Shown here in pieces: positions 2,451 through 63,285 of a DNA stretch of 64,000 nt. Source of the DNA: an uncultured Clostridia bacterium (GTDB taxonomy: Bacteria; Bacillota; Clostridia; Oscillospirales; QAKW01); NCBI GenBank assembly GCA_947627315.1, contig CANQVN010000001.1:1656-65655 (forward strand), given 5' to 3'. A program made the translations under genes and the position numbers. Numbering within the stretch: position 1 is the stretch's first letter; every line of letters starts with the position of its first letter. The notes under the pieces are model-generated. The model saw nothing but the letters and a program-made list of their open reading frames with translations, was not told the DNA's origin and searched no databases.

Positions 2451-2467
2451 TTACAAGGAGAAAAAAT

Positions 2468-15847: not shown

Positions 15848-15863
15848 AAGGAGGATTTTTATT

Positions 15864-26470: not shown

Positions 26471-26499
26471 ATTGACATTATGGATTTTAACGGATATAA
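26471..26499 (+). promoter_or_regulatory. Consensus sigma-A-type promoter of the ATPase/RloB pair
   Basis: TTGACA-N17-TATAAT, an exact consensus match, 50 nt upstream of ATG 26549. Confidence 0.65.
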
Positions 26500-26548
26500 T
26501 ATAAGCAAAAGACGGAAATACTATGTTCATTACTGGAGGAGTCCGTTT

Positions 26549-27727: not shown

Positions 27728-28347
27728 GAAAAGAGTACGACCCGGACAAAGCGAAACGGCGTAAGCGCAGGCCGATTCTTTATATCATCTGCGAGGGAAA
27801 GGAAACAGAAACAAAATATTTCCGGCATTTCCGTTCCCGAAACTGTTTGGTCGATATCGTCCCTATCTCCTCCAAGCACAAGGCGGCGGAGCATTTGGTA
27901 AAACACGCGAAAAGCCTGCTCTCACAGGCAGACTACTTCCCAAAAGACGGCGATCGGCTGTGGTGCGTCTTTGACTGCGATGAAAACACGAATGCGGAAC
28001 TGCAAAACGCACAGAATTATGCGGAAAAACACAGCTATAAAATCGCATATTCAAACCCCTGCTTTGAATATTGGTACCTGCTTCATTTTACACAACACAA
28101 CGGTCATTTAAGCGGTGCCGGCGAAGTGTTAAAACTGCTTCAAAGCAAGGGACGGCTTGAAAAGTACGAAAAAAGCCTTGATGTTTTTTCGGATCTGCTG
28201 CCACGTCAATCCGAGGCGATCCGACGCGCAAAAGAGCGTTTGGATCAACTTTGCAAAGAGAACGTCGCCGTTCTCAGCCGTGACAGCAATCCGGTCACGA
28301 ATGTTCATGAACTTGTGGAATTTTTGAACAGTCAACAAACAAAATGA
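27724..28347 (+). CDS. RloB-like (TOPRIM-related) protein, partner of the ATPase (AbiLii-like)
   Basis: The ATG overlaps the ATPase stop (ATGA). N-terminal hallmark ILYIICEGKETETKYF. Also WCVFDCDE and FEYWYLLHF. Confidence 0.75.
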   Translation: MRKEYDPDKAKRRKRRPILYIICEGKETETKYFRHFRSRNCLVDIVPISSKHKAAEHLVKHAKSLLSQADYFPKDGDRLWCVFDCDENTNAELQNAQNYAEKHSYKIAYSNPCFEYWYLLHFTQHNGHLSGAGEVLKLLQSKGRLEKYEKSLDVFSDLLPRQSEAIRRAKERLDQLCKENVAVLSRDSNPVTNVHELVEFLNSQQTK

Positions 28348-28371
28348 TATCTATATATAGAATGTAAATGC

Positions 28372-28400
28372 TTGACAACAACAATATATGGTAGTATAAT
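28372..28400 (+). promoter_or_regulatory. Consensus sigma-A-type promoter (copy 1 of the duplicated promoter-leader module)
   Basis: TTGACA-N17-TATAAT exact. The spacer is homologous to the minus-strand promoter at 62767-62795. Confidence 0.65.
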
Positions 28401-28406
28401 AACAAT

Positions 28407-28534
28407 GTAATTGATTTATGTGCGCTTCCTTTGGGAATGAGCGGTAAAAAGCCGCATTGCACAGGTTGTTGAGTTTGTATTCAAAGTGTCGATGTACGGT
28501 TGCCTTTATGGGCGGCCGGTATCGGCACTTTTTT
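28407..28534 (+). ncRNA. Candidate ~125-nt structured leader/sRNA ending in an intrinsic terminator, upstream of ssb (paralog of 62634-62760 minus)
   Basis: Conserved blocks TTGATTTATGTGC and GCATTGCACAGGTTGTTGAGTTTGTATTCA. Hairpin 28485-28529 followed by TTTTTT. The ssb RBS begins only after the terminator. Confidence 0.45.
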
Positions 28535-28572
28535 ATATAGATATTTTAAGCCGAGAGGCAGAAAGGAGAAAA

Positions 28573-36785: not shown

Positions 36786-36967
36786 TAAAGTTCAAAGCCT
36801 TTTATGCAGCGCAGTAGCGTGATGCACAACTCCTGATACAGATCCTCGTCAAACGCATCGTCTACCACGGACTCTTTTAAGATAAGCGGACGGTACATTT
36901 CAAAAAGTGTATCAAACGAACCAAAATCGCCGCTTTTGGCACCGCGTATGAGCATCTCAAAATCCAT
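36785..36967 (-). CDS. Small sigma region-2-like protein (Tn916 orf8-like position)
   Basis: 60 aa: ...GDFGSFDTLFEMYRPLILKESV...DEDLYQELCITLLRCIKGF. RBS GGAGGTG. Start overlaps the upstream stop by 1 nt. Confidence 0.5.
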   Translation of the reverse strand: MDFEMLIRGAKSGDFGSFDTLFEMYRPLILKESVVDDAFDEDLYQELCITLLRCIKGFEL

Positions 36968-37356
36968 TACAGTACACCTCCGTTCATTTTGTCACGCAGT
37001 TTTTTCAATGCTCTGTAAAATATGGATGCCACCGTTTTGTATGGTATATTCAGTTCAAAAGCCAGTTCTTCAAAACGCTTTTCGTCTAAAATATGCCCCA
37101 AAACGACGTACCGCTCTCTGCTGCTTATTGCATTCAGCGCGCTCCATAAATCGCAAAGTTCTATCACCTGCATAAAATAATCGTGCGTATCGCAAAACAG
37201 ATCGTCCGAAACAGTGCCGATAAGTTCAAACCGACGCTGCCTGTTTTTGCTTTTAAGGTATGTAAGACGGGTGTTCCGTACAGACGTCTTCAGATAAGCG
37301 GTAAATCTGTTTTGCAGAATATCCGCATAGTTTTTTCCATCGTTCTTTTTAAACAT
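36967..37356 (-). CDS. Sigma-70 region-4-like HTH protein (Tn916 orf7-like)
   Basis: ATG at 37356 (the track start 37368 is a TTG). SRERYVVLGHILDEKRFEELAFELNIPYKTVASIFYRALKKLRDKM. Confidence 0.55.
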   Translation of the reverse strand: MFKKNDGKNYADILQNRFTAYLKTSVRNTRLTYLKSKNRQRRFELIGTVSDDLFCDTHDYFMQVIELCDLWSALNAISSRERYVVLGHILDEKRFEELAFELNIPYKTVASIFYRALKKLRDKMNGGVL

Positions 37357-37361
37357 AAAAG

Positions 37362-37406
37362 CCTCCAAATTCTGATTTTTGTCGAAACAAAAACAGAATC
37401 CGGAGG
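37362..37406 (-). promoter_or_regulatory. RBS-sequestering stem-loop / attenuator in front of the orf7-like gene
   Basis: Minus strand: CCTCCGGATTCTGTTTTTGT TTCG ACAAAAATCAGAATTTGGAGG, then CTTTTATG. The 3' arm contains the GGAGG Shine-Dalgarno sequence. Confidence 0.5.
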
Positions 37407-37612
37407 CGCACGCGGACGCAATAGGTATAAAAAACCAAAACTCTTGAATGGATTAGGTTCAAGAGTGATTCTTGTTATTTTACGGGATTGGCATCGCGAA
37501 TGAGTTGATCGATTTTGCCTGCATAAAGTAGTCCAACATAATCCCCGCCTTTGTTAATGAAATTCAGGCATATATCTCGGATCACAGACAACAAAATATT
37601 GGATAAATGGAT

Positions 37613-37646
37613 AAATAGACGATGGCGCACCTGCCATCGTCTATTT
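37613..37646 (-). terminator. Hairpin at the 3' end of the XRE gene
   Basis: AAATAGACGATGGC / GCCATCGTCTATTT 14-bp stem overlapping the stop codon. Only a weak T-run follows. Confidence 0.45.
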
Positions 37647-37926
37647 ATCTGCTTTTTATTATCATGTCGGGCAGCGTAGACGCTCTGAGCAAATCAGCCG
37701 GATCGACATTTAATGCGTCGGCAATATTGAACAGCACGTCGAGCGAAAAGCCGTAAGCCATGTTGGGCGCTTCGATGTTGCTGATAAGAGAACGGCTCAC
37801 TCCGGCGTTGGCCGCAAGTTTTTCCTGCGTTAATCCGCGCACTTTGCGAAGCGTGGAGATAGCTATTCCCAGTTGAACGAATCTATCTCTGTTTTTATAA
37901 CCTATCTCTTTACCCATAGCATCCAC
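37645..37926 (-). CDS. XRE-family HTH transcriptional regulator (start 37926 GTG or 37917 ATG)
   Basis: LRKVRGLTQEKLAANAGVSRSLISNIE is a classic HTH_3 pattern. Confidence 0.75.
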   Translation of the reverse strand: MDAMGKEIGYKNRDRFVQLGIAISTLRKVRGLTQEKLAANAGVSRSLISNIEAPNMAYGFSLDVLFNIADALNVDPADLLRASTLPDMIIKSR

Positions 37927-37995
37927 ACTTTCTTTGTTATTTCATTTTAATTATAGTATGAAATGCCTTTTCTTTCAGTACGCAACAGTAAGCGA

Positions 37996-38024
37996 TTGAC
38001 TTTATTAGTCAGCAATAGTATAAT
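37996..38024 (+). promoter_or_regulatory. Near-consensus sigma-A-type promoter divergent from the XRE gene, pointing at the island/integrase
   Basis: TTGACT-N17-TATAAT. Confidence 0.6.
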
Positions 38025-38152
38025 GTTATAGGCATATAAGTTTTTAATTGCTTAGGCAACTGTGTACGGAGGCTGTAATTTGGTAAGCAGTAATATACCG
38101 TGTAGAAAAACAAAAAACAGACGCCAAAAGACATCTGTTAATTTAATGTGTT

Positions 38153-38178
38153 TTTTCGTAAAGTATGTCACTCAACGA
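38153..38178 (+). repeat. Left copy of the perfect 26-bp inverted repeat bracketing the island integrase
   Basis: TTTTCGTAAAGTATGTCACTCAACGA. The exact reverse complement occurs at 39589-39614. Confidence 0.9.
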
Positions 38179-38200
38179 AGCAAATTCTTTATAAAACCCA

Positions 38201-38228
38201 TATAATTATACACGTATAATTATACACG
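38201..38228 (+). repeat. Perfect 14-nt tandem direct repeat upstream of the integrase (candidate arm-type or operator sites)
   Basis: TATAATTATACACG x2 (38201-38214 and 38215-38228). Confidence 0.8.
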
Positions 38229-38390
38229 ATGTCGCCGTACTTGTCAATGTGTCAGCAAATAATATCGAAAAAGATAAATTTTTGCGGTTTTGAGATATCA
38301 CAATAAAGTTTTGCTACACATGGACAACCTGTTTTTCGGCCATTTGCCGTCAACATCGCCGTCATCAATTAAAAAGTTGGAGGAAAATTT

Positions 38391-39521
38391 ATGCCAAAGA
38401 CAGGAGAAAACATTTATAAACGCAAAGACGGTCGATGGGAGGGCAGATACATTCGCTACTATGATGAAAATGGAGTCGGTAAATACGGATATGTATACGC
38501 TAAAACTTATAGAGAGGTTAAGATAAAACTTGCAGAAAAATCTGCAATTATTTCATCTCGACAGATATTACTTTCAAATAGTCATGTTACCTACGACGAA
38601 ATTTTAACCGCATGGTTACAGTCGTCAAGAATTAACATAAAAGAATCAACCTACGCGAGATATACGCATATAGTTGATAGTCATATCCGACCATCGTTGG
38701 GTAAGTATCAACTTTGCAAGATCAGCACGCAGTTAATTGAAGGGTATATAGAAAGCAAATTGCACAATGGAAGATTGGATAAGAACGGTCCTCTATCTGC
38801 AAAAACCGTAACAGATATGCTCTCTATAATCAAAAGTTCTTTTGAATATGCCAGATACAATAATCTTCCGGTTATTTGTAATTTAAGCAAGTTGTCGATT
38901 AAAAGAAAAGATAAAGAGATGCGTGTACTCCGACAGGATGAGCAAAATTTGTTGGTGCGTGTGCTGCTTGATAAAATTGATTTATATAAATTCGGTGTTC
39001 TTTTATCTCTTTATACCGGTATTAGAATTGGAGAACTATGTGCATTACGGTGGGGCAATTTGTGTTTAGACGACCGTATTCTTAGAGTCAGAGAGACGAT
39101 GCAGCGCATCCGGGATACAAACATGGAAACAAATACTAAGACCAAGATCATTATTACAGAGCCAAAGAGTCAGTGCTCTATCCGTGATATTCCATTGCCG
39201 GAATGTATCGTTGTGATTGCACGACAATTTCGCGCATCAGATAAAGATTTTATTCTTACCGGAGATCGCGTAAAATTTGTTGAACCTCGTACAATGCAAA
39301 ACCGTTTTAGGCATTACGTCATGGAATGCGGAATCGACCAAGCAAATTTTCATTCTCTCAGACATACATTTGCAACACGATGTGTTGAACTTGGTTTCGA
39401 ATTGAAGAGTTTGAGCGAAATACTCGGTCATTCAAATGTAAATATTACTCTTAATAAATATGTCCACTCATCATTTGAGTTGAAACACAGCAACATGAAT
39501 AAACTTACATTACCACTTTAG
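38391..39521 (+). CDS. int: Tyrosine site-specific integrase (Tn916-Int/phage-integrase family) of the nested island
   Basis: RBS GGAGGA. N-terminal arm-binding pattern GENIYKRKDGRWEGRY. Catalytic-region motifs LYTGIRIGELCALRW, HSLRHTFATR and LGHSNVNITLNKYVH. Confidence 0.85.
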   Translation: MPKTGENIYKRKDGRWEGRYIRYYDENGVGKYGYVYAKTYREVKIKLAEKSAIISSRQILLSNSHVTYDEILTAWLQSSRINIKESTYARYTHIVDSHIRPSLGKYQLCKISTQLIEGYIESKLHNGRLDKNGPLSAKTVTDMLSIIKSSFEYARYNNLPVICNLSKLSIKRKDKEMRVLRQDEQNLLVRVLLDKIDLYKFGVLLSLYTGIRIGELCALRWGNLCLDDRILRVRETMQRIRDTNMETNTKTKIIITEPKSQCSIRDIPLPECIVVIARQFRASDKDFILTGDRVKFVEPRTMQNRFRHYVMECGIDQANFHSLRHTFATRCVELGFELKSLSEILGHSNVNITLNKYVHSSFELKHSNMNKLTLPL

Positions 39522-39544
39522 CGCCGTCAAAATAATAGTCAAAT

Positions 39545-39586
39545 AAGCGTCCGAAAGTCACGTTATAACTGTGATTTCGGGCGCTT
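39545..39586 (+). terminator. Strong hairpin after the island integrase (weak T-run)
   Basis: AAGCG-CCGAAA-TCAC ... GTGA-TTTCGG-CGCTT. It ends 2 nt before the right inverted repeat. Confidence 0.45.
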
Positions 39587-39588
39587 TG

Positions 39589-39614
39589 TCGTTGAGTGAC
39601 ATACTTTACGAAAA
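39589..39614 (-). repeat. Right copy of the perfect 26-bp inverted repeat
   Basis: TCGTTGAGTGACATACTTTACGAAAA is the reverse complement of 38153-38178. Confidence 0.9.
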
Positions 39615-39620
39615 TATAAA
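39592..39620 (+). promoter_or_regulatory. Candidate promoter whose -35 box lies inside the right inverted repeat
   Basis: TTGAGT-N17-TATAAA, 16 nt upstream of ATG 39636. Confidence 0.45.
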
Positions 39621-39635
39621 ATAGCGGGTGTGAAT

Positions 39636-39983
39636 ATGAGCGATTACCAAGTAAATAAGTTGCTTGACATTGATAAAGATCAGTTAATTGCACGATTAAC
39701 TTCTGATTTGTCTGCGCTGTGAGCAAAACTTGGAATATCACAGTATGCACTTGCCAATCTAATTGGAATATCAAGGCAAACCTACAATTCTATTGAAACC
39801 GGCAAGAAAAAGATGCCGTGGAATGTCTTTTTGGCCTTGATTTTGTTATTTGGCTTTAATGAAAAAACTTCGTATCTTGTAGAGGCATCTGGTGCATTTT
39901 CTCCTTCCCTAAAAAAGGTTTTAGGAATCAATGAACGGGTTGAGAAAGCACTTGACGATATATTGGTTTCAAATACAATATAA
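39636..39983 (+). pseudogene. XRE-family HTH regulator interrupted by an in-frame TGA at 39720-39722
   Basis: MSDYQVNKLLDIDKDQLIARLTSDLSAL*AKLGISQYALANLIGISRQTYNSIETGKKKMPWNVFLALILLFGFNEKT.... The HTH lies downstream of the stop, with no start codon after it. Confidence 0.6.
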
Positions 39984-40312
39984 AAATTTGATGGCAAAAT
40001 AATAGTCAACCAATTCATTAAAAATTCAACAACAAAAATATTTAAATTTTGGGGAGTAAATTTAGAAGTAAATTATAGAGTAGAGTTGATCAAATATAAA
40101 GGCGACCAATAATACCTTTATAGGGTGACGTCAAAGCGAGGATATCAATACATTATCCTCTTTTAGATATTCCAAACCTTCATATATGTACTCGAATTAA
40201 ACTTTTACGAAAAATTAGCCTTGAGTTTCCAGTATCTATGCCTGAGAGAACTATGGTGCAAGTTCTAACCAGATTTCCTAAAAAGTAACAATAATTCAGG
40301 AGGTTTCATCGT

Positions 40313-42007
40313 ATGAGCGATATGGATATACTCTCTGATGGCAATTTTGATATCGAATCTGACTCAAGTCTTGACAGCGACTTGGATTTGTATATGGATT
40401 CCGATATAGAATCTCTGGATTCGTTTGATGATGTTGATGCTTCGTTTTTGGGGGACGGCGATTCAAATATGGATCTCGATTCTACAGGCTCGGACTTTTT
40501 CAATGAGTCATTTGATGAAGTTGGTCTGCAAGCAGATATAGATGAAGCATCTGATTCTTCAGAAGATCTTTTGAGTGATTTGGATGAAGTTCCCGATACG
40601 GAGAACTTCGAATCTATTTCGGAAGTTGATATTGATACATCTGACGATGAAATTGAAATTCTTGAAATGGATGATGGTGAACTAATCGATGAAGTAGGAA
40701 CAGCATTTGAAGCCGACGATGAAACAGAAGAAGTTTCGGGTGAACAAATTGACTTACTTGATACAAATGATTATTTAAGCGATGTGGCTGATGATATACA
40801 AGAAGAAGCCGGTTTAATTTCAGACGAAACGGAAACCTTGTCTGAAAACATCAGTGGCGGGTTGGATTTAGAAGACGGACTTGAATCATTATCTCTTGAA
40901 GATTTAACAGATCTCGAGTATGAAAATGGTAATGAAGAACTGGAAGAACTTGTCTCGCCGGCGGAAGAGGAAATGACCGAAACTCCAGAGGATGCTTTGG
41001 ATGCCATTCAAGCGGAGCGGGAAAGACTTACTGAAATAAAAGAAGCACTCGCAGAGATGCAAAATTCCGAAATTAAAGATGCAGATGAGTATGAAGAAGA
41101 TTCTCCGATGGTACGCACTCGTGAGATAACATCTGAGATACTTGAGAGCAGAGAACGCGACACCGAGGAAGTTCTTGATAATTATCGAGATAACCTTCGC
41201 GGATACGGCGTCAATGAAGCGCAGATTGAAGAATTTGTCGAACAAGAACGCGAAAAGATCAACGCCGAATATGAGAGTTTAGATCGCGGAGACGAATATC
41301 CACAGATGTATGAAACGCCGAATGATTGGGAGAAAATTTCAGCATCCTTAATGGGTCAAGAAACTCAAGATGAGATACACTATGAATCCTCTCAGTTTTC
41401 TGAAATAGAAAATCAGGCTTTAGAAGAATTAGAAGAGGAGAATCAGGAGTTAGAGATCAATTATGATGAAATTTATGAGGCTATTCAACAAGATTCCCTT
41501 GAACAAGGTTTTGAGAATATCCAAGTAGATGCAGACCCGGAGAGATTAAATCAATCATTAGAAAACTTCAATGAATCGACATGGGAGGATCTTACTCTCG
41601 ATGAACAAAAAGACTCGATGGCATCTTTGGCTGATTATGTAGTCGATGTGATCGGATTTGAAAATCCACCAAAAATTGAGTACTACAACAACGAACGTAA
41701 AGGTGACTTTGGCGGATACGACTCAACTGCCAATACTTTGTATATCAATGAATATATGTTATACAATTCCGATGAGGCTGCCGATACAATTGCTCACGAA
41801 CTATGGCATGCCCATCAACATGAATGTGCTGAAAATCCTCAAAGTGCTCTCGATTATCAGTATCAGTACAATTTTGAAAATTATATACCGCCTGAATTGG
41901 GGCAAGAAGAGTATGAATCCCAGTTAGTTGAAGCAGAAGCCAGAGCTTTTGCGGCTCAGTTCAAAGATAGATTATCTCATATTAATAGAGGTCATGACGA
42001 TGGATAA
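40313..42007 (+). CDS. Hyper-acidic protein with a C-terminal HExxH zincin-like domain
   Basis: RBS AGGAGG. The first ~230 aa have almost no Lys/Arg and are D/E/S-rich. C-terminus: TLYINEYMLYNSDEAADTIAHELWHAHQHE...EAEARAFA. Confidence 0.55.
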   Translation: MSDMDILSDGNFDIESDSSLDSDLDLYMDSDIESLDSFDDVDASFLGDGDSNMDLDSTGSDFFNESFDEVGLQADIDEASDSSEDLLSDLDEVPDTENFESISEVDIDTSDDEIEILEMDDGELIDEVGTAFEADDETEEVSGEQIDLLDTNDYLSDVADDIQEEAGLISDETETLSENISGGLDLEDGLESLSLEDLTDLEYENGNEELEELVSPAEEEMTETPEDALDAIQAERERLTEIKEALAEMQNSEIKDADEYEEDSPMVRTREITSEILESRERDTEEVLDNYRDNLRGYGVNEAQIEEFVEQEREKINAEYESLDRGDEYPQMYETPNDWEKISASLMGQETQDEIHYESSQFSEIENQALEELEEENQELEINYDEIYEAIQQDSLEQGFENIQVDADPERLNQSLENFNESTWEDLTLDEQKDSMASLADYVVDVIGFENPPKIEYYNNERKGDFGGYDSTANTLYINEYMLYNSDEAADTIAHELWHAHQHECAENPQSALDYQYQYNFENYIPPELGQEEYESQLVEAEARAFAAQFKDRLSHINRGHDDG

Positions 42008-42296
42008 AATTATACAATATTTAATGTGTGAAAAGGGCGTTACTGAAGTAGTTGCCAAAGTCCTGTTCAGAACACTTACAAAGTATAAGGATATCGAGAG
42101 CGAGTTTATTTATTGGATAGATAATAGAAGTTACAATGCGCCAAACGCCATTGAAATTGGCGGCTACTCTGCCAAGAAAATCAGTGAAATCGCACCTTCA
42201 TTGGATGCAGCCGGAGTGTATAATTTCATGGTTACACTGCGAGATGTCCCCGAAAAAGCACAGGAATATATTAAAAATGGATTTCCAAGAAAGTGA
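42000..42296 (+). CDS. Small hypothetical protein (99 aa) overlapping the HExxH gene end (possible cognate partner or immunity-like protein)
   Basis: The ATG lies inside GATGGATAA of the upstream stop. No family recognised. Confidence 0.4.
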   Translation: MDKIIQYLMCEKGVTEVVAKVLFRTLTKYKDIESEFIYWIDNRSYNAPNAIEIGGYSAKKISEIAPSLDAAGVYNFMVTLRDVPEKAQEYIKNGFPRK

Positions 42297-42305
42297 GGGT
42301 TGATT

Positions 42306-44066
42306 ATGGAAAACAACAGACTTACAGGTTACCCGTCGATTGATAAGCCTTGGATGAAATACTATGATTGCAGCGACAAGGTAGATATTCCTAAGCTCTC
42401 AATATATCAAATGATCAGAAAGAATAACGCAACCCGTTTGAATAAGGTCGCTCTTGATCTGCGGAGTAGTGCAAACGGTTATAAAAAGGGAATCGAAATC
42501 ACTTATGGGAAGTTTTTCAAGCGTATCGAAATGGTTGCAAAGGCATATTCATACTTGGGTCTTAAGCCAGACGACATTTTGATAACTATTTTGCCCAATA
42601 TCCCCGAGAGCAGAATTTTGATTTACGGAATGAATCTTCTCGGCGTTACTGTATATCCCGTTTCTCCGTTTATTTCAGTTGTTCAGTTGGAAAAGGTGAT
42701 TGACGAATGTAGCTCAAAAAATATAGTTGTTTTTGAAAAATTCCTTAAAAAATTTGAGAGTGCTTTGGCGGCAAAATCATTCAACAGTATCTTGCTTGTG
42801 AATGGCATGGAATCGGCTCCTTTTGCTCTTAAACTGGCACAGAAAATTATCAACCCCGCTGTAAAGCGTGAACTTACGAACGGGAATTTGCTATACTGGA
42901 GTCATATCGAAAAATTAGCTGATAAGGTCAAAAAAGATATTGTACCATACTATGATTCTGAACATATAGCAGTTATAGTTGGCACGAGTGGGACAACTGG
43001 CACGCCAAAGGGGGTATGCCTTACAGATGATAATCTCAACGCTATTGCGCTTCAGCATTACTTGAGCGGTATTTTTGATGAAGAAGATGTTATGCTTGAC
43101 GCTCTTATTCAGTCGATTGGGTATGGGATATCTACGATGCACTATTCAACTTGTTATGGATTAAAGAATATTCTCATTCCTGAACTGCTAACAGATAAGT
43201 TTTCTGAGGTTCTTTGTTTGACTAAACCCGACCACTTTACGGGAGGTCCGGTACATTTTCAATATCTTGTTAACAGCAAGGAATTTATCAATAAAGAACT
43301 TCCTCCGATGAAAAATTTAGTTTCGGGAGGAGCCTCCTTGCCAAAGGTTTTAGAAAAGCAGATTAATAATGTCGATGATGATTTTTCTGAAAATGGGCAA
43401 AAGGATAACAGGATAATTGTGCGTCAAGGATTTGGATGCACCGAAAACGGTGGCTGCGGAGCATATTCAAAGGCAGGAGCATACAAATTTGGCGGCGTAG
43501 GGATACCGCTCCCGCTAGATACTTTTGCTATTTTTGAGCCAAATACGGATAAAGAACTGCCGTATAATACCGAAGGGGAAATATGTATAAGTGGTCCTAC
43601 GGTCATGAAATGTTACTTGAATAATCCTGCCGAAACAGAGAATGTTCTTAAAGCCCATTCCGACGGTCGCGTATGGCTTCACCTTGCCGATCTTGGGGAA
43701 ATCGACGAGGACGGACAGGTGTATATTATTGACAGAATCAAAAACATATTCATGCGTACGGGCTTCAATGTTCACCCGTCAAAAATTGCGGAGTTTATTT
43801 CTTCCCTGCCGTACATAAGCGAGTGCGTCGTTTTGGGTGTACCTGACTCAAAGGAGCAGATGGTCCCTGCGGCGTATATGGTAATAAATCCCGACTGCAA
43901 AGAGGATAAAGACAGCGTTTTGAAGTCGATTCAAAAAGAATGTGAGAGCAATCTCAGCGAAACGGATATGCCTGCGCACTGGTATTTTGTGGATGATATC
44001 CCGAGAAACGCAGGAGGCAAAGTAGATTACCTAGCCTTAGAAAAAGAAGCGGCATATATCAATTAA
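42306..44066 (+). CDS. ANL-superfamily adenylate-forming enzyme (acyl-CoA synthetase-like), paralog 1
   Basis: N-terminal TGYPSIDKPWMKYY. Motifs VGTSGTTGTPKGV, GFGCTENGG, GEICISGPTVMKCYLNNPAET, LADLGEIDEDGQVYIIDRIKN and C-terminal GGKVDY. Confidence 0.75.
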   Translation: MENNRLTGYPSIDKPWMKYYDCSDKVDIPKLSIYQMIRKNNATRLNKVALDLRSSANGYKKGIEITYGKFFKRIEMVAKAYSYLGLKPDDILITILPNIPESRILIYGMNLLGVTVYPVSPFISVVQLEKVIDECSSKNIVVFEKFLKKFESALAAKSFNSILLVNGMESAPFALKLAQKIINPAVKRELTNGNLLYWSHIEKLADKVKKDIVPYYDSEHIAVIVGTSGTTGTPKGVCLTDDNLNAIALQHYLSGIFDEEDVMLDALIQSIGYGISTMHYSTCYGLKNILIPELLTDKFSEVLCLTKPDHFTGGPVHFQYLVNSKEFINKELPPMKNLVSGGASLPKVLEKQINNVDDDFSENGQKDNRIIVRQGFGCTENGGCGAYSKAGAYKFGGVGIPLPLDTFAIFEPNTDKELPYNTEGEICISGPTVMKCYLNNPAETENVLKAHSDGRVWLHLADLGEIDEDGQVYIIDRIKNIFMRTGFNVHPSKIAEFISSLPYISECVVLGVPDSKEQMVPAAYMVINPDCKEDKDSVLKSIQKECESNLSETDMPAHWYFVDDIPRNAGGKVDYLALEKEAAYIN

Positions 44067-44082
44067 AGTTAAGAGGTCAAAA

Positions 44083-45837
44083 ATGCAAATCGAGAAGAAA
44101 ATGACTGGCTACCCGTCAATTGATAAGCCTTGGTTAAAATATTATCGTAAAGAAGCAATCAACGCTCCGCTCCCAACATGCTCAATGTACGAATATATTT
44201 ACAAGAACAATAAAAATCATCTCGATGCTATTGCGCTTGTATATTTTAATACTAAAATAACTTACCGCACCTTATTTGATGAAATTAATAAAGCAACCAC
44301 AGCATTTCTTGCTGCTGGACTAAAAAAAGGCGATGTTGTTTCGTTTATTACCATTACTACTCCCGAGATGATATATGCCCTCTATGCAATAAATAAAATT
44401 GGAGCGATTGCGAGTATAATTGATCCACGCGCATCGGCGGAGTCATTAAAAAAGCAAATTACGGATGCAAAATCTAATATACTGATTCTACTTGATGCTT
44501 GTATAGAACAAGTTGAATCTGTTATATCCTCTTTGACTTTTAAGGAAATAGTGGTTATACCTGTAAACCAATCAATGAATTTTCCTATCAAACAGATCTA
44601 TTCGGCAAAGGCGATATTTAGCAAAAAAATACCCGTCAGAAGTTTTCGATTTATTACTTGGAGGAATTTCATAAAAGCATCTGATTCTTTGCTGCTTACT
44701 ACAATTGAATCAGATGCTAATGCACCCGCAGCAATTACCTATACTGGTGGAACAACTGGCATTCCCAAAGGCGTTGTGCTCTCTAATCAAAATATCAATT
44801 CCGTTGCAGAACAATATAAAAATGCTGCTAGTTCTCTTAAAAGAGGTCAATCTTGGCTTACCGTTTCAGCGCCATTTATAGCATATGCCTTTATTGTCGG
44901 GCTGCATCTTCCATTATCATACGGAATGAGATGCTGTATAGAATTATATGATCCAGAAGTTATGGTTCATAATATTCTTCGAAAAAAGATCAATCACGTG
45001 GCAGCAACACCTGTTGTGTTTGAAAAATTACTTAATAACCCCCGAGCGCAAAAAGCAGACCTATCTTTTTTAATTGCTCCTACTTGCGGTGCAGATGCTC
45101 TGAGTCTTCAATTAGAACAGAGGATTAATACATTTTTATCTGAACATAAGTGTAAATGGAAAATTTGCCAGGGGTATGGCATGACAGAGGTTGGAACAGG
45201 CGTCTCTTTAAATATTTCGAAAAATTGTTATAAACTTGGTAGCGTTGGTGTTCCATTTGGAAATACAATAGTATCAACCTTTGATACAAAAGCATATGAA
45301 GAACAAAAAATTGGCTCTGTAGGTGAAATATGTATACAGGGACCAAGTGTTATGCAAGGATACTATAATGATCCGATTGCAACAAACTTGGTTATACGGA
45401 AGCACTCTGATGGCTCAGTATGGTTTCACACTGGAGATTTAGGCTATTTTGATGAAGACGGTTTTCTCTATATAGTCGGAAGAATAAAACGAATGATTAC
45501 CCGATATGATGGCTTTAAGGTATTTCCCGCCGTAGTTGAAGAGGCATTGATAAAACATACTTATGTTGAACAATGCGCGGTAATCGGAGTAGAGGATTCC
45601 AAACATCAAGTTGGACAATTACCAGTTGCATTCATTGTTTTATCTAAAGATTGTGATATTGCACAGACCAAAATAATCAGCCAATTAAATGTTTACTGTA
45701 ATAATCTTTTGCCAAAATATGCACACCCTATCACATATTTTTTTCGCAACTCTTTGCCTCTCACTGCCGCAAATAAAATAGATTATAGGGCACTTGAGGA
45801 AGATGCCGCCAGTACAGAAGAAATCAGAATTGAATGA
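44083..45837 (+). CDS. ANL-superfamily adenylate-forming enzyme, paralog 2
   Basis: N-terminal TGYPSIDKPWLKYY. Motifs YTGGTTGIPKGV, GYGMTEVG, GEICIQGPSVMQGYYNDP and TGDLGYFDEDGFLYIVGRIKR. Confidence 0.75.
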   Translation: MQIEKKMTGYPSIDKPWLKYYRKEAINAPLPTCSMYEYIYKNNKNHLDAIALVYFNTKITYRTLFDEINKATTAFLAAGLKKGDVVSFITITTPEMIYALYAINKIGAIASIIDPRASAESLKKQITDAKSNILILLDACIEQVESVISSLTFKEIVVIPVNQSMNFPIKQIYSAKAIFSKKIPVRSFRFITWRNFIKASDSLLLTTIESDANAPAAITYTGGTTGIPKGVVLSNQNINSVAEQYKNAASSLKRGQSWLTVSAPFIAYAFIVGLHLPLSYGMRCCIELYDPEVMVHNILRKKINHVAATPVVFEKLLNNPRAQKADLSFLIAPTCGADALSLQLEQRINTFLSEHKCKWKICQGYGMTEVGTGVSLNISKNCYKLGSVGVPFGNTIVSTFDTKAYEEQKIGSVGEICIQGPSVMQGYYNDPIATNLVIRKHSDGSVWFHTGDLGYFDEDGFLYIVGRIKRMITRYDGFKVFPAVVEEALIKHTYVEQCAVIGVEDSKHQVGQLPVAFIVLSKDCDIAQTKIISQLNVYCNNLLPKYAHPITYFFRNSLPLTAANKIDYRALEEDAASTEEIRIE

Positions 45838-45992
45838 ATCATTAATAAAATTGTAAATTTCAGAAGTACATCCTATTGTGAAATTCACTTTTGAAGATAC
45901 ACTTTTACACGATTAAAAATAACTTTTTTCGGCTTCGAATAAAAATAATTCTATATATAGTAAATAAAGGTGAAAACATGGAGGAAATGTAA

Positions 45993-56433: not shown

Positions 56434-58101
56434 TTAATCCTCTACGGTGGATGTCGGAGAGAAATCCACCCTGCAAAATCCGTTGACGTCACAGTAAAAG
56501 TATCTGCTTTTACCGCCGTCATACAGTTCGATCACATCGGACGGCGCAATGCTCCTGCCGGGATAATCGTCCGGCAGGTCATCGTTGTAACGCCTGAAAA
56601 TCATTCTGAGCACGGTGCTTTCGGCGTCGTCTTCGGCGCACTGGAAAACACCGTCGTAAACCATTGAATAATCCTCTGCCGGAGGCTGTTCATAGCCCGC
56701 CTTGTGCAAAGCGGCTATCCCGCTGAAGGCAAACGCCTTTGTGGGACTTTCCTCGGTAAATTTCAACTGGTAAATGCGAAACGGCAGGTTTCGCCGCGAA
56801 GCCGAAAGCCGCCTTTCCAGTCCCTCATAATCTTTACGGAGATACAGCTCGTATTCCCGATCGGAAAATCCGAGAAATTCCGGCAGGGTTATCGTTTCGT
56901 CCGACGCCCTCCACTTTTCCGCATCTTTTTCAATATCGCCCAGCGTGCACAGACCGTATAAGTATCTTCGCTTAAAATTCATTAAATTTTCTTCCTCTCC
57001 TTTTTTCCTGTTCCGCAGCGCAAGCAGCCAGTCGTCAATGCCTTTGTAATTGGGGTTCCATGTAAGACGCTCAAATGACATTTCGTGTTTTTTTGCCATG
57101 CGGTACATCGCGAAAACGCCGCGGTTTACGTGGACGTTTCTGAATTTATCCATATCGACCGCCTCGATGATTTTCTGCGCTCCGTTTTCGGAAAGCAGAG
57201 CAAAAAGCATATCCAGCGGCGCCGTATTGTTAACGCCCATGACGGCGGCAAACGTTCTGCCGGTCAGATAGTGGGCGATGTCCGCCTTGAGCGGTCCTTC
57301 CGTCACGTATACAACGCGGGAGAACGGGTCGCCCGTAAAATGCGCCGAACTGCCGGACGAAACGCCCATCGGCTTGCCCGACGAAGAGAAGTTGATGTAT
57401 TTCGCTCCGGGCTTACCCTTGTCGTCGCACAGCGGAACGTCCGGTCGGATCTGAAATCCGTGAACGGTGCCGTTCACTCCGCGCAGCGGTATGATGATCC
57501 CTGCGGTCTTTGTGGAAAAATTCATTGTCCACCTGCCGTCCCTTTGGTAAAAGCCGGGTACTCCCTTGACGGTGTATCCCTGCTTTATCAAGCGGCTTGT
57601 CAGCGACTCGCACATACAAAACGGCGGTGTGGATTTATACCCCGACCGTTGTATCTGCTCGTCGGTAAGCCCGCGCACCTGCGTTAGATGCAGTCTGTGC
57701 CTGTCGGACAAGGCGAGCATATCGAGCAGCGCGGAAAGCGTGCGATGGATAACGGGATTTTCCGCCCGATCCGTGACGGTGTGCGCCTCGGCGGGTGCTT
57801 TGTTTTGCTTTGGTTTGTCATAAAGCGTTCCGTTTTGAATGCTGCCGCAAATTTCATGAAACGCGTCGGAATTGCTTGCGAGGCGTTTGAATTTTGCATA
57901 CAGCGACAACATGCCGCCCGACTGCCCGCAATAGTTGCATCGCCACACGTTTTTTTCATAGCATACCTTCATTTTTCCGCGGCTGTCGCCGCAAAACGGG
58001 CAGTTTGTATACACTCCGTCACAGCACTGCCTGCGAATATGCAGGTTCAGCAAATGCACAACGTCCTCAATGTCAAACGGAAAATCCCCCGATTGACCCA
58101 T
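56434..58101 (-). CDS. DNA primase: CHC2-type zinc finger + TOPRIM, with a YodL-like C-terminal domain
   Basis: CPFCGDSRGKMKV...WRCNYCGQSGG. TOPRIM motifs VYVTEGPLKADI and IIEAVDMDK. C-terminal FRIYQLKF...YSMVYDG. Confidence 0.7.
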   Translation of the reverse strand: MGQSGDFPFDIEDVVHLLNLHIRRQCCDGVYTNCPFCGDSRGKMKVCYEKNVWRCNYCGQSGGMLSLYAKFKRLASNSDAFHEICGSIQNGTLYDKPKQNKAPAEAHTVTDRAENPVIHRTLSALLDMLALSDRHRLHLTQVRGLTDEQIQRSGYKSTPPFCMCESLTSRLIKQGYTVKGVPGFYQRDGRWTMNFSTKTAGIIIPLRGVNGTVHGFQIRPDVPLCDDKGKPGAKYINFSSSGKPMGVSSGSSAHFTGDPFSRVVYVTEGPLKADIAHYLTGRTFAAVMGVNNTAPLDMLFALLSENGAQKIIEAVDMDKFRNVHVNRGVFAMYRMAKKHEMSFERLTWNPNYKGIDDWLLALRNRKKGEEENLMNFKRRYLYGLCTLGDIEKDAEKWRASDETITLPEFLGFSDREYELYLRKDYEGLERRLSASRRNLPFRIYQLKFTEESPTKAFAFSGIAALHKAGYEQPPAEDYSMVYDGVFQCAEDDAESTVLRMIFRRYNDDLPDDYPGRSIAPSDVIELYDGGKSRYFYCDVNGFCRVDFSPTSTVED

Positions 58102-58970: not shown

Positions 58971-61220
58971 TCAGCTTGCTTGTTTCAATTCGCTTTTGTG
59001 AAGCGACTGAACCTTTAAATAATTGTTGATGCGTTCGCCCAGCGCGGTGTTGCGGACGCCCGTATCGTTTCTGCCTATCGCCATAATGAGCATTCCTTTT
59101 TGCCCTATCAGAATTACTTTGCGCTTGGCACGGGTAATGGCGGTGTAGATAAGCGTTCTTTTGAGCATGATGGCGTGACTGCGAATGATCGGCAAAATGA
59201 CAACGTCGTATTCCGAACCCATCGCTTTGTGGACGGTGGTGGCATACGCAAGCTCGACGTTTGCCATATCCTCCATTCCGTATTTGACCGTCCGATCTTC
59301 GCCAAAGGATATGACCACTTCGATATCGCCTTTGTCGTTTGTACGGATATCCTGTATAAAGCCGATATCGCCGTTGGACGCCGCCGTGCTGTTTTTCGTC
59401 TGCATCACTTTATCGTTGCAGCGAAAATACTTGCCGCCGACCTTCAGATCGGGCATATCGTCCCGGACGGGATTGACCATTTCTCTCAATACGATGTTGA
59501 GATTGTCAACCGCCGCTTCACCCTCCGAGCGGAACGGCGAGAGGATCTGTACCCGGTCAATGCCGTATTTGCTCACACGGTCGCAAAACACATCGCAAAT
59601 GACGGACGCCGCCTCCTGCTGCGTCGTGCATTTCATAAATCTGAAATCCTCGCCGTAGGTAAGCGCGCTTTGTCCCGCGTTGATGCTCTGCGCGTTGTAA
59701 GCAATAAGGCTGTCCTTTTTCTGGCGAAATATCTCGCCGAGCCTTGTAACGGGGATGTTGCCGCAGTTTATAAGCTCGCGAAAAACATCGCCCGCGCCGA
59801 CGCTTTGCAGTTGATCGGCGTCTCCGACCAGGACAACCAAGGTTTTTGGGTCGATCCGCGAAAAGAACCGATCGGCAAGCCACATATCCACCATGGAACT
59901 CTCGTCTATGATAATCAGGTCTGCTTCAAGCGGCGCAGTTTTGCCGCCCTTCGGGATAAATTCGCTGTCACCCACGAGCCCAAGCAGACTGTGCAGCGTG
60001 CTTGCGTCTTTTCGTCTGGTGCTTTCAGCCATACGGCGGCTTGCACGCCCCGTAGGTGCGGCAAGCAGGATCTTCCCTTTCGGATACAGGTATTCAAAAA
60101 CCTTTATGACGGCGCGAAGGACTGTTGTTTTGCCGGTGCCCGGTCCGCCTGTTATGATGGATAGTTTGCTTCTGAAAGCCATATATACGGCTTCCGTTTG
60201 CTTTTGGGAGAGCGTGATGCCCAACGTGTCCCTGACGCTTGCCAGCGCGGTGCGCACGTCGGAGTCCTTTGTTTTTTCGGAGAGCATTTTGGCGATTTTA
60301 CAAGCCGTTTCATCCTCCTGAACAAAGCATTTCGTTTGGTATATCCGTCCGTCGCTGCTCACCACTTCGCCTTTCAGTATCATTTGCTTCAGCACGGCGT
60401 CGATCTCCTCTTTTGAAACGTTTATCTGCGGCTCGGGGAGTTTTTCGTTTAACAGTTTTGAAGCCGTATGCAAAAGTTTTTCACCGCTTAAAAACAGATG
60501 TCCGTTATCGTTTTTCTGCGTATCCAACGCCGCGAAGATCGCGCCGTGTATCCGCATCGGCGCGTTCGGCTTACAGTCGCCTTTTAACACGATGGCGTCG
60601 ACACGCTTGAACCCGAAGCCGGATATGCGGCACAGTTCATACGGATCGTTTTGCAGTATTTCCACGCTTTTCGCGCCGAAATACTCGTAAATTTTCGCCG
60701 CCGTTACCGGTGTGACGTTAAACGGAGAGAGCAGTATCATCAAGTCTCTGAGCGATCGGCTCTGTTCGCATGAATTTACGATGCCGTCCAGCTTTTCGCG
60801 GGTAATGCCCTTGATTTCAAGCAGTCTTTCCGGTTCGTTTTCCAATACATTCAGCGAATCGGCGCCGAACCGCTCTACGATCAAAGCGGCGGTTTTCTCT
60901 CCGACGCCTTTTATGAGATGAGAGGAGAGATAGCCCTGTATACCGTCTTTGGTCTGCGGCACGATCTCTTCACAACTTTTCACCTGAAGCTGATACCCGT
61001 GCTTTCCGTTCTGCCAATCGCCGTCCAAAATCATGCTGACTTTATCGGTCAGGGGCAGTCCGTAACCCACGGCTACAAAGCGGATCAAATGATCTCTGTG
61101 CCTGTACGCGCTGCGTGCCTCTTGCGGTACGCTTCTGTCCGATGTTTTTACGCTTATAACGCAATATTTGCTTGTCGGGCTGTAAAATATAGTTCGGTCA
61201 TAAACGCCGAGATAGCCCAT
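58971..61220 (-). CDS. RecD2/TraA-like SF1B helicase
   Basis: RBS AGGAGG. Motifs ITGGPGTGKTT, IIIDESSMVD and ATTVHKAMGSEYDVVILP. N-terminal HhH-like repeats. Confidence 0.8.
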   Translation of the reverse strand: MGYLGVYDRTIFYSPTSKYCVISVKTSDRSVPQEARSAYRHRDHLIRFVAVGYGLPLTDKVSMILDGDWQNGKHGYQLQVKSCEEIVPQTKDGIQGYLSSHLIKGVGEKTAALIVERFGADSLNVLENEPERLLEIKGITREKLDGIVNSCEQSRSLRDLMILLSPFNVTPVTAAKIYEYFGAKSVEILQNDPYELCRISGFGFKRVDAIVLKGDCKPNAPMRIHGAIFAALDTQKNDNGHLFLSGEKLLHTASKLLNEKLPEPQINVSKEEIDAVLKQMILKGEVVSSDGRIYQTKCFVQEDETACKIAKMLSEKTKDSDVRTALASVRDTLGITLSQKQTEAVYMAFRSKLSIITGGPGTGKTTVLRAVIKVFEYLYPKGKILLAAPTGRASRRMAESTRRKDASTLHSLLGLVGDSEFIPKGGKTAPLEADLIIIDESSMVDMWLADRFFSRIDPKTLVVLVGDADQLQSVGAGDVFRELINCGNIPVTRLGEIFRQKKDSLIAYNAQSINAGQSALTYGEDFRFMKCTTQQEAASVICDVFCDRVSKYGIDRVQILSPFRSEGEAAVDNLNIVLREMVNPVRDDMPDLKVGGKYFRCNDKVMQTKNSTAASNGDIGFIQDIRTNDKGDIEVVISFGEDRTVKYGMEDMANVELAYATTVHKAMGSEYDVVILPIIRSHAIMLKRTLIYTAITRAKRKVILIGQKGMLIMAIGRNDTGVRNTALGERINNYLKVQSLHKSELKQAS

Positions 61221-62339: not shown

Positions 62340-62633
62340 TTTTAAGTACCTCTGTTTCTTGTTCTTTGCGATATTGCGGCAGGGATATACACTGCCCGTA
62401 TCGGGTATTTCATTTGTTTTCTTGCCTCCTTTCTCCATGCTTGCCGCAGCGCGGCGCACCGTCCGATGTGCCGTCTGCGATGCCTGTGCCTTCTTCTCAT
62501 CATTTTTCCGCCTTTCTTGAAATATTCCAAACACCGTAAGGTGATTTTGGCAATAAAAAAGCGAGAACGGCACAATAGATTAAAGTCGCCTGCAAAAGCA
62601 GAGCCGATGCCATTCTCACTAAAAATTAAAAAT

Positions 62634-62760
62634 AAAAAAAGCCGATAAAATCATACCGTCAAAGGACGGTTGATACTATCGGCTGAATATACAAACTTAA
62701 CAACTTGTGCAATGCAGATCGTTCTGCGATCCGTTAAGGAAAAGCACATAAATCAATGAC
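62634..62760 (-). ncRNA. Candidate ~125-nt structured leader/sRNA ending in a strong intrinsic terminator (paralog of 28407-28534)
   Basis: The minus strand carries TTGATTTATGTGC and GCATTGCACAAGTTGTTAAGTTTGTATATTCA. A long hairpin at 62640-62684 is followed by TTTTTTT. It lies between the promoter and the yqaJ-like gene. Confidence 0.45.
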
Positions 62761-62795
62761 AACTATAATATACCACAATATATTGTAGTTGTCAA
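62756..62795. promoter_or_regulatory. Palindromic region carrying two interleaved divergent promoters (leftward: leader + DNA-processing operon; rightward: toward xis/int)
   Basis: 16-bp arms TGACAACTATAATATA / TATATTGTAGTTGTCA (1 mismatch). Minus strand: TTGACA-N17-TATATT. Plus strand: ATGACA-N17-TATATT. Confidence 0.55.
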
Positions 62796-63078
62796 TAGCG
62801 TTTATCTACATATTGATTTTTCAAAAAGCCTTTGCGGAAAACAAAGGGTACGGCTTATATTTATATTATGAAAAGGTACACGAAAGTGTGCCGATGTACA
62901 TTGAAAACCGAATAGTTCCCGCCGGGAGTTATACGGGATTTGCGGAAAGTATGCCACGACGCGGCTGCCGAGCGTGCCCGCAGATGAAACAGCGCACAGC
63001 GCGACCCGAAAATACGCACTTTGAGAGAGTGCAGGAAATGGCCCGGAACGGGAATGCCGAAATAAAAGGAGGAAAAAT

Positions 63079-63285
63079 ATGTTTATAAATACAGAAGAAA
63101 TACCTGTAACATTCGGAGCAGCGGAGTTATCATCTATACTCGGTATTTCGAGAAACAAGGCATATGAACTGATCCATACTGCGGGGTTTCCCAAATACCG
63201 GATAGGCAGAAAAATCATTATAAGTAAAAAGCATTTTTTAGAATGGATGGACAGGCAATTTGATGAATCCAATCGGCTGTATTAA
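63079..63285 (+). CDS. xis: Excisionase / MerR-type HTH DNA-binding protein
   Basis: RBS AAAGGAGG. 68 aa. FGAAELSSILGISRNKAYELIHTAGFPKYRIGRKIIISKKHFLEWM. Confidence 0.7.
   Translation: MFINTEEIPVTFGAAELSSILGISRNKAYELIHTAGFPKYRIGRKIIISKKHFLEWMDRQFDESNRLY

Follow-up and report, generated by a model that had tools for sequence, protein, structure and literature searches.

A compact promoter-leader-terminator module heads two operons of an integrative and conjugative element (ICE) that lies in a 64,000-nt stretch of DNA (below, the window) from an uncultured Clostridia bacterium. We focus on the second copy of the module, which runs on the minus strand from 62795 to 62634 and stands at the head of the exonuclease/helicase/primase operon. 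As far as sequence comparison can tell, the module is undescribed and is widespread in Clostridial ICEs (hundreds of genomes), and its conservation and covariation indicate that it is real and selected as RNA. It appears to provide leader-terminator control of mobile-element operons, a kind of control that is already known. The best explanation of how it works, to which we give about an even chance of being right, is that transcription is terminated by default and relieved by a trans-acting factor that would read an invariant core of the leader.

Two paralogous copies of the module in the window

An initial annotation had described this segment as copy 2 of a module whose copy 1 lies on the plus strand, and had proposed that its leader acts as a checkpoint on the operon. 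We found every sequence feature that it described for copy 2 where it had been placed, and the view of a second promoter-leader-terminator module heading the exonuclease/helicase/primase operon is supported. The paralogy holds as well: the reverse complement of about 62600-62820 aligns with 28340-28560. A repeat finder run on the window reports 28372-28431 and 62736-62795 as an inverted repeat of 60 nt with 82% identity, and the window has exactly two occurrences of the 27-nt core GCATTGCACARGTTGTTRAGTTTGTAT, where zero would be expected by chance. The two copies score 62.4 and 58.0 bits with the covariance model described below; there is no third copy in the window, where the next match to the model reaches 11.5 bits (filters off). 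The parts of copy 2 and its operon, and then of copy 1, are as follows.

62805..62816, minus strand: TCAATATGTAGA, a degenerate copy of the upstream palindrome CTATATATAG of the family consensus
62767..62795, minus strand: predicted sigma-A-type promoter, TTGACA-N17-TATATT with a TG extension (11/12 consensus matches)
62685..62762, minus strand: leader RNA core (covariance model 58 bits, E = 6e-11; fold; family covariation)
UGUCAUUGAUUUA, minus strand: 5' flank of the leader
62748-62744 paired with 62710-62706, minus strand: helix P1
62740-62738 paired with 62732-62730, minus strand: helix P2
62727-62723 paired with 62718-62714, minus strand: helix P3
AGUUGUUAAGUUUGUAU, minus strand: 3' tail of the leader
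62634..62684, minus strand: intrinsic terminator T1, an imperfect ~20-bp stem (62684-62641) and seven U (62640-62634)
62555..62619, minus strand: second structured terminator T2, a stem (62619-62561) and then six U (-27.6 kcal/mol)
62532..62543, minus strand: small conserved hairpin CACC-UUAC-GGUG (alignment of 17 type B loci, see below)
62342..62503, minus strand: 53-aa Arg/Lys-rich open reading frame (ORF), MMRRRHRHRRRH...RTRNRGT, with its stop 3 nt before the YqaJ start codon
61293..62339, minus strand: YqaJ-like exonuclease, the first large gene of the operon (Pfam)
58971-61220, minus strand: RecD2 (Pfam)
56434-58101, minus strand: primase-YodL fusion, with PcfK and PcfJ next (Pfam)
28372..28536, plus strand: module copy 1 (alignment, fold, covariance model)
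28372-28400, plus strand: promoter of copy 1
28405-28484, plus strand: leader core of copy 1
28484-28530, with a U-run to 28536, plus strand: T1 of copy 1
28573, plus strand: start of the SSB gene behind copy 1

The leader of copy 2 is ~75 nt long and lies between the promoter and T1; leader and terminator together have a predicted fold of -39.2 kcal/mol (z = -4.8). A common fold is predicted for both copies (z = -4.2 and -4.8), with P1 (UGUGC/GCACA), two inner hairpins, a single-stranded tail and the terminator. The inner hairpins differ compensatorily between the copies (e.g. GCGG/CCGC vs GCAGA/UCUGC), and the two T1 are alike in architecture and unrelated in sequence. Despite this divergence of hairpins and terminators, the two copies share rare variants of the flanks, with a U to A substitution before P1 and C to A/G and C to U substitutions after it: GAUUUAUGUGC is found in 6 of 264 instances and GCACA[A/G]GUUGUU in 5 of the 264. 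That one element should hold the same rare variants twice fits with both copies matching one element-specific partner; partial gene conversion could equally explain it.

A leader RNA family in Clostridial ICEs

Relatives came from several searches. Two divergent ones, with the gene order int-xis, leader, exonuclease-RecD, were found by plasmid blastn in Vescimonas fastidiosa and Subdoligranulum variabile; these two family members were the only plasmids hit among 72,556, a collection whose inclusion of pLS20 was not checked. A first DNA pattern, built from the core common to the window and these plasmid relatives, matched 15 loci in a viral collection and at least 118 loci in a one-genome-per-species collection, nearly all of them in Clostridia. 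A second pattern, which fixed the outer flanks only, matched at least 120 metagenome loci. An SSB-anchored search of viral contigs gave no relatives. Hosts among the matches listed include Lachnospiraceae, Oscillospiraceae, Hungatella, Enterocloster, Anaerotruncus, Acetatifactor, Lawsonibacter, Intestinimonas, Flintibacter, Caproiciproducens and others; two matches in Chitinophagaceae have no upstream promoter and look like chance matches. Cultured carriers include Anaerotruncus colihominis DSM 17241, [Clostridium] asparagiforme DSM 15981, Hungatella effluvii DSM 24995, Acetatifactor muris DSM 23669 and Vescimonas fastidiosa MM35.

Rfam 15 gave no match in the whole window, nothing relevant around copy 2 at E values up to 10, and tRNAs only over 16 homologous loci. 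Full-text literature searches with the motif sequences returned no paper, and keyword searches nothing relevant.

The covariance model was built from 29 four-helix members, and covariation was measured on an alignment of 77 hits (64 distinct rows). The inner helices P2, P2b and P3 are 97.5% paired across this alignment, which was itself fitted to the model; all 14 variable pairs show changes on both sides, and none of 500 column shuffles reaches the observed values. When the 3' partners were slid by 1-3 columns as a control, pairing fell to 23-63%. P1 behaves otherwise: it was UGUGC/GCACA in 68 distinct metagenome sequences, though the second pattern had left it free. The constant part of the leader thus comprises a 5' flank (GUAAUUGAUUUUU), P1, and the 3' tail CGYUGUUAAGUUUGUAU, and both flanks are C-poor and essentially invariant. 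Flanks and P1 keep their sequence also where the search pattern left it free.

What lies inside P1 is far less constant. Leaders in the family range from 50 to 105 nt, with P1 enclosing 5 to 58 nt of variable content, and the interiors fall into classes with two hairpins (as in the window copies), with three hairpins (the commonest) and with short versions. In the minimal leader, which came to light on two viral contigs (L260/L261, 2030-2270) when YqaJ homologues were fetched by protein alone, P1 closes a 5-nt loop only, and yet the promoter, both flanks, T1, T2 and a downstream microprotein ORF are all kept. Because this variant retains just P1 and the flanks of the leader, we take these to be the core; the inner helices have the character of an expansion segment.

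No alternative pairing between leader and terminator appears in the predicted folds of either copy, in which leader and T1 fold side by side. The stretch before P1 is ~13 nt long and has no complementarity to T1. A search of the 64-kb window for antisense targets of either invariant flank found the module copies only. A single-strand DNA promoter or origin of the Frpo/sso type, which works on the transferred strand and so has a set orientation towards it, was rejected: the two copies occupy different strands of the element and point in the direction of their own operons, and the promoter hexamers lie outside the hairpins.

The module is found in three genomic contexts

Contexts were established by searching the flanks of 204 distinct instances with a set of window proteins (tblastn), and three types were recognised.

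Type A (window copy 1): upstream, sigma factor, p229 and p150; downstream, SSB, a membrane protein and DUF932
Type B (window copy 2): upstream, divergent xis-int; downstream, YqaJ exonuclease and RecD2 helicase
Type C: upstream, divergent xis; downstream, a zinc-ribbon protein (67 aa) with a 400-aa protein, followed by a type B copy

An element carries two or three copies of the module, each heading a co-oriented operon. The type A operon of the window extends to a methylase-SNF2 fusion. The type C operon, which sits between xis and the YqaJ-type copy, is exemplified by L027 (2043-3461) and likewise seen in L054, L122, L123, L127 and L163; its ~400-aa protein is cysteine-rich. Neither p229, p150 nor the type C proteins have a Pfam or NCBIfam match. 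By their sequence annotation, the genes downstream of the modules belong to the sort required early on, in DNA processing or establishment.

The association was also seen starting from the protein. Among seven YqaJ loci fetched by protein alone, the leader was present in all five with at least 55% identity and available upstream sequence; of the remaining two, one was cut at the gene and one (33% identity) had no leader. In most relatives the genes recognised ahead of the leader end with p150, which comes after the sigma factor and p229; in the window p150 is separated from copy 1 by a pair of genes for an AAA_21 ATPase and RloB (26472-28347, plus strand), an insertion that has a perfect TTGACA-N17-TATAAT promoter of its own.

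These data bear on the checkpoint proposed for the leader. With the whole module conserved, and with covariation, in hundreds of related elements, it looks on comparative grounds like a genuine regulatory checkpoint.

Promoter and leader form one unit

The minus-strand promoter TTGACA-N17-TATATT of the initial annotation is present as described. For the family, we anchored 161 distinct upstream regions on the leader and obtained a gap-free consensus of TTGAC(A), a spacer with C.ATAT.TTGTG, TA.A.T and, five bases on, TGTAATTG. This fixed spacing indicates that promoter and leader form one unit. In the same 161 regions the AT palindrome CTATATATAG stands 10-20 nt upstream of the -35 hexamer; copy 1 carries a perfect version, TCTATATATAGA, at 28352-28363. 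Its role may be that of an UP element or of an operator.

Conservation of the RNA sets in close to the predicted transcription start site, which would be the G/U of UGUAAUUG. A hexamer at the start site, TGTAAT, matches the -10 consensus TATAAT at 5 of 6 positions; it is fixed 5 nt after the -10 element, and 101 sequences show its G and T without exception, though the search pattern left them free. Window copy 2 has TGTCAT, a weaker -10-like element. Just upstream of the copy 2 promoter, at 62829-62847 on the minus strand, there is a terminator-like hairpin with a T-run, which could insulate the promoter from antisense transcription entering through int/xis.

Tandem terminators and a basic microprotein precede YqaJ

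The strong T1 reported for copy 2 is confirmed, its ~20-bp imperfect stem being followed by seven U and its hairpin alone amounting to about -25 kcal/mol. T1 was detected in all 61 type A instances and in 57 of the 62 of type B, where some at least of the five misses are detector artefacts (L010 shows a clear T1). It starts at a median of 12-16 nt after the conserved TGTT.

T1 had been described as lying ~300 nt before the first gene, and this distance stands for the YqaJ start codon (ATG at 62339); the interval, however, holds T2 (62619-62555), the small hairpin and the 53-aa ORF. The arms of T2 (GUGAGAAUGGC/GCCGUUCUCGC in the window) enclose a variable hairpin and are followed by a U-run, and these long arms covary in the family, where GCGAGAAUGAC/GUCAUUCUCGC and GCGGGAAUGAC/GUCAUUCCCGC take the place of the window pair. 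Both T1 and T2 are predicted to be intrinsic (Rho-independent) terminators, each having a G+C-rich hairpin with an immediate U-run. Two or more terminators within 260 nt of the leader were found at 56 of 62 type B and 10 of 11 type C loci. The small hairpin lies between T2 and the ribosome-binding site of the microprotein and is flanked by UUGCC.AAA and UUUGGAAUAU. No sigma-70-type promoter is predicted between the terminators and the genes of window copy 2.

An ORF in the position of the 53-aa microprotein is present at 68 of 69 type B loci and ends at, or a few nt from, the YqaJ start. The family has a median length of 55 aa with 29% R+K and 4% D+E, and about half of the listed variants end in RRxRRG[A/I]. 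The 53-aa protein has no Pfam or NCBIfam match; its composition makes it a candidate nucleic-acid-binding factor.

The palindrome is peculiar to copy 2

The initial annotation also set copy 2 within a palindromic hub of divergent promoters next to xis and int. The features on this side of the module are the following.

62757..62794, no strand: 38-bp palindrome with 16-nt arms and a 6-nt centre (15/16 complementary; element-specific)
62756..62784, plus strand: promoter-like site ATGACA-N17-TATATT (10/12 matches; created by the palindrome; unconserved in the family)
62896..63045, plus strand: conserved xis-upstream element, with blocks GTACATTGAAAA, GGAGTTATACGGG, GCGCACAGCGC and GCAGGAAATGGCCCGG
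63079..63285, plus strand: xis gene (HTH_17, Pfam)
63407, plus strand: start of the int gene

The palindrome (arms 62757-62772 and 62779-62794, 94% complementary, around the 6-nt centre) and the plus-strand ATGACA-N17-TATATT site both exist as annotated, and so the divergent hub stands as a description of this element's sequence, but not as a design of the family. Homologous elements do have the leader; the palindrome is absent from every one of the 161 distinct promoters except that of window copy 2, and we reject it as a family feature. At equivalent positions the arms match at 15 of 16 bases in window copy 2 and at 4-12 of 16 in all others, where the baseline of ~8 stems from the inherent partial symmetry of TTGACA with TGTAA. 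The best reverse-strand sigma-70-like promoter likewise scores 10/12 in the window against 5-9/12 elsewhere, including 27 other xis-adjacent copies. The sequence comparison suggests that the palindrome arose largely from one A-to-C change, from the near-invariant TGTAATTG to TGTCATTG, together with a chance-like match in the variable spacer. The family-conserved motif C.ATAT.TTGTG is a shorter, palindrome-like sequence, which sits inside the copy 2 promoter spacer too. The palindrome centre had no match in viral contigs.

Could a single palindromic operator in this hub nevertheless co-regulate xis/int excision and DNA processing? We consider this quite unlikely. In its favour, the palindrome and both promoter-like sites are there in this element, the 15/16 arm match is a family outlier that could reflect selection in the lineage, and the distance to xis is 283 nt, where most relatives have about 430-540 nt and the closest ones (L001, L004) about 290-350 nt. 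Against it, the 160 other distinct promoters, 27 of them xis-adjacent, have neither the palindrome nor a good reverse promoter, and a separate element is conserved upstream of xis in the family. The near relatives found (two metagenome contigs) are 100% identical across the hub, with two differences nearer xis; they offer no informative variation and so nothing that supports selection. From these comparisons a co-regulating hub would be a peculiarity of this element and not the family design, and the plus-strand promoter may be a working one in this particular element.

The family element upstream of xis lies 40-190 nt before the gene and was seen at all 12 aligned loci and at 19 loci overall (including L001, L002, L004, L017 and L027). 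Its family blocks are ACATTGACAA.TTCATAGC, GGAGTTATACAGG, GCCGCACAGCGGC, AAATACGCGG and GCGCAGGAAATGGGCC; GGAGTTATACAGG, GCACAGC, AAATACGC and GCAGGAAATGG are invariant. There is long-range covariation (CCGG/CCGG vs CUGG/CCAG), and the window version folds at -54 kcal/mol (z = -1.8). The element may be a promoter, a structured 5' untranslated region, or both; if a promoter, it may serve the ICE's own sigma factor (a TCATAGC-N14-TATACA-like arrangement).

Other features of the ICE

At the left end of the ICE a very strong intrinsic terminator (2375-2452, plus strand; -30.4 kcal/mol, z = -6.3) stands 16 nt before the first plus-strand ICE gene there (ATG at 2468). At the right end xis and int have this orientation too, so that after excision a transcript running across the joint would come up against this terminator. 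Tn916 has the same layout with its T1 insulator, and by analogy a Tn916-like layout may apply to this ICE, with the xis-side element as the positional counterpart of the Tn916 RNA canT. Nearby, 2031-2070 (minus strand) corresponds to the 3' part of a tRNA gene, its T-arm and acceptor end, without an intact tRNA in the vicinity, and is probably the left attachment-site repeat marking the element boundary.

A block of low GC content at about 36900-54000 (35-40%, where the rest is at about 50%) encodes a second tyrosine integrase (38391-39521), two AMP-binding enzymes, an XRE regulator, a sigma protein with region 4 only and further cargo, and has the look of a cargo island or nested element within the ICE. 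A 404-aa protein (15840-17054, plus strand) with an acidic N-terminal region and ribosomal-protein-S1-like repeats adjoins the coupling protein. The S1 repeats are its sole Pfam/NCBIfam match, and they make it possible that the protein binds single-stranded RNA or DNA.

A proposed factor-dependent override of default termination

We infer that the module terminates transcription by default and that termination is relieved in trans, a reading that in our judgement is about evenly poised between right and wrong. The near-consensus housekeeping-type promoter would fire and a short leader RNA would be made, its functional core being P1 with GUAAUUGAUUUUU on the 5' side and the invariant tail on the 3' side. 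RNA polymerase would by default stop at T1 a few bases on, with T2 as an additional barrier in the YqaJ operon. Expression of the DNA-processing and establishment genes would then need a trans-acting factor that recognises the invariant core and drives read-through of T1 and T2, that is, factor-dependent and probably processive antitermination. With the same signal on two or three operons, one factor would turn them on jointly. Candidate factors are the 53-aa Arg/Lys-rich protein, another protein of the element (for example the S1-repeat protein at 15840-17054) and host elongation factors.

Several considerations lead to this reading. A near-consensus promoter followed by two terminators makes sense solely with an override, as the operon would otherwise be silenced. 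The lack of any competing leader-T1 pairing, together with the dispensable interior, points to a factor rather than to a riboswitch or a zipper-type attenuator. An always-on antiterminator RNA would make the universally conserved adjacent T1 pointless, so that the override is expected to be conditional. Lastly, a protein, or RNA polymerase itself, would read features of just this kind, an invariant short helix between C-poor single strands.

A number of points weigh against it. The fitting of the alignment to the model inflates the pairing counts somewhat, and P1, the helix at the heart of the proposed core, never varies (one G-U variant in L256 excepted) and being invariant has no covariation support of its own. 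The 3' tail resembles boxA weakly when set against real Clostridial rrn leaders. No evidence singles out any one candidate factor, and the basic protein is encoded downstream of both terminators, so that leaky read-through would be needed at the start. In neither operon were strong internal terminators detected above chance, and processivity is therefore suggested by the T1 and T2 tandem alone.

A more specific version holds that the leader is a new class of antitermination signal with an element-encoded reader, the ~53-aa microprotein being the leading candidate, in a positive-feedback switch for the establishment and DNA-processing operons. This we put forward tentatively, as a serious candidate that is on balance unlikely. 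The closest system in its logic is lambda nut/N, in which a helix and an adjacent single-stranded box lie near the promoter with terminators downstream, a small arginine-rich protein is encoded in the operon and one signal is reused on several operons. There are differences: boxB has a fixed pentaloop, to which the arginine-rich N peptide binds, whereas the P1 described here encloses 5 to 58 nt and is not a boxB, the basic protein is encoded downstream of the terminators, and there is no sequence homology. As to boxA, the rrn leaders have GAACUUUGAAAAUUAAACA in C. difficile and GGUCUUUGAAAAUUAAACA in C. estertheticum, and these two Clostridial leaders share with the tail CGYUGUUAAGUUUGUAU just a U-rich UNUU(U)GA-like stretch.

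For other Gram-positive conjugative elements, control by terminators and their antitermination is established. In Tn916, strong terminators (T1-T3) guard the DNA-processing and conjugation genes, and canT, a single cis RNA of ~450 nt upstream of xis that works without other genes of the element, lets the element's own transcripts pass (PMC11658703). By that description canT is set apart from the leader studied here, which is 50-105 nt long, is present two or three times per element, faces away from xis and is adjoined by a terminator of its own, an arrangement that would be pointless with a constitutive cis antiterminator. The conserved xis-side element at 62896-63045 is a better positional analogue of canT than the leader is. 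In pLS20, antitermination by conAn needs a protein gene and a large RNA after the leader (PMC8191782), and in the zipper-type attenuator cATT an upstream segment pairs with the terminator, so that a long central stem is extended to form an antiterminator (PMC13401043). Our module resembles conAn and cATT in exerting leader-encoded control of long operons with an intrinsic terminator within the leader; the signals of canT and of conAn/cATT are, however, much larger, single-copy and differently placed. A zipper-type attenuator is rejected for the module itself, as the ~13 nt before P1 are not complementary to T1 and leader and T1 coexist in the fold. HK022 put and the Bacillus EAR element are, like the leader, compact structured RNAs near the 5' end, which make RNA polymerase terminator-resistant. 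Both work without a dedicated regulator and neither is directly followed by its own terminator, put, a pair of stem-loops to which RNA polymerase binds directly, being set apart in this way by its description; Rfam 15 gave no match for EAR either, though the presence of an EAR model in that release was not checked.

Three further explanations compete with a conditional override. The module could be a small RNA gene, producing an abundant ~125-nt RNA whose invariant 5' end acts in trans by base-pairing or protein titration, with read-through into the operon incidental or merely dampened. The conserved segment does start at the predicted start site, as small RNA seeds do, a strong terminator and its U-run close the RNA, and there are several copies per element. 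We nonetheless hold this to be rather unlikely, given that nearly every classified context has the module immediately ahead of an operon of the same orientation, that the genes behind copy 2 have no predicted sigma-70-type promoter of their own past the terminators, that the window offers the flanks no complementary target beyond the module copies, and that type B loci continue with a second terminator and with translational signals. A riboswitch, in which the multi-helix junction would bind a small molecule and control T1, could account for strong covariation in a multi-stem junction directly upstream of an intrinsic terminator. It is highly improbable: the interior shrinks to a 5-nt loop in L260/L261 with promoter, flanks, T1 and T2 kept, helix number varies, the most conserved parts lie outside the junction, no pairing mutually exclusive with the terminator was found, Rfam has no match, and the downstream genes serve mobile-element DNA processing rather than metabolism.

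The remaining alternative places the signal in the DNA. At lambda PR'-tR' a near-consensus promoter is followed by a strong terminator, and a short terminated 6S RNA is made by default. The module is similar in its sequence layout, with a near-consensus promoter, a -10-like hexamer at the transcript start, a presumed short default RNA and a large gene block that read-through would switch on; the feature of a -10-like element in the initially transcribed region, known from PR', would here be provided by TGTAAT. On this account the spacer motif C.ATAT.TTGTG, the upstream CTATATATAG and TGTAAT are the real signals: TGTAAT would cause a sigma-dependent promoter-proximal pause, a DNA-binding antiterminator would join RNA polymerase, and the leader would be the counterpart of 6S. 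The 5/6 match, fixed position and invariant G and T of TGTAAT speak for such loading, as do the conserved spacer and upstream sequences and the likeness to PR'-tR'. We judge it decidedly unlikely all the same. It leaves unexplained the covarying RNA helices and the invariant 3' tail, for Q systems do not need a structured leader; no Q-type antiterminator Pfam family was found among the ~55 window proteins scanned; and window copy 2 has the weaker TGTCAT.

Gene flow in the gut relies to a major extent on the conjugative elements of Lachnospiraceae and Oscillospiraceae, and to our knowledge almost nothing is known of their regulation. The module offers a shared, easily recognised control point on two or three operons per element. 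It can serve as an annotation marker for such elements, as a candidate new Rfam RNA family and as a compact system for the study of terminator override in Clostridia. If factor-dependent antitermination is the true reading, the picture known from Tn916 and pLS20 would reach a much larger and more distant group, which would use another, much smaller RNA signal. If moreover the signal is read by the microprotein, this very widespread family of gut Clostridia elements would have a one-step switch that turns on the establishment and DNA-processing operons.

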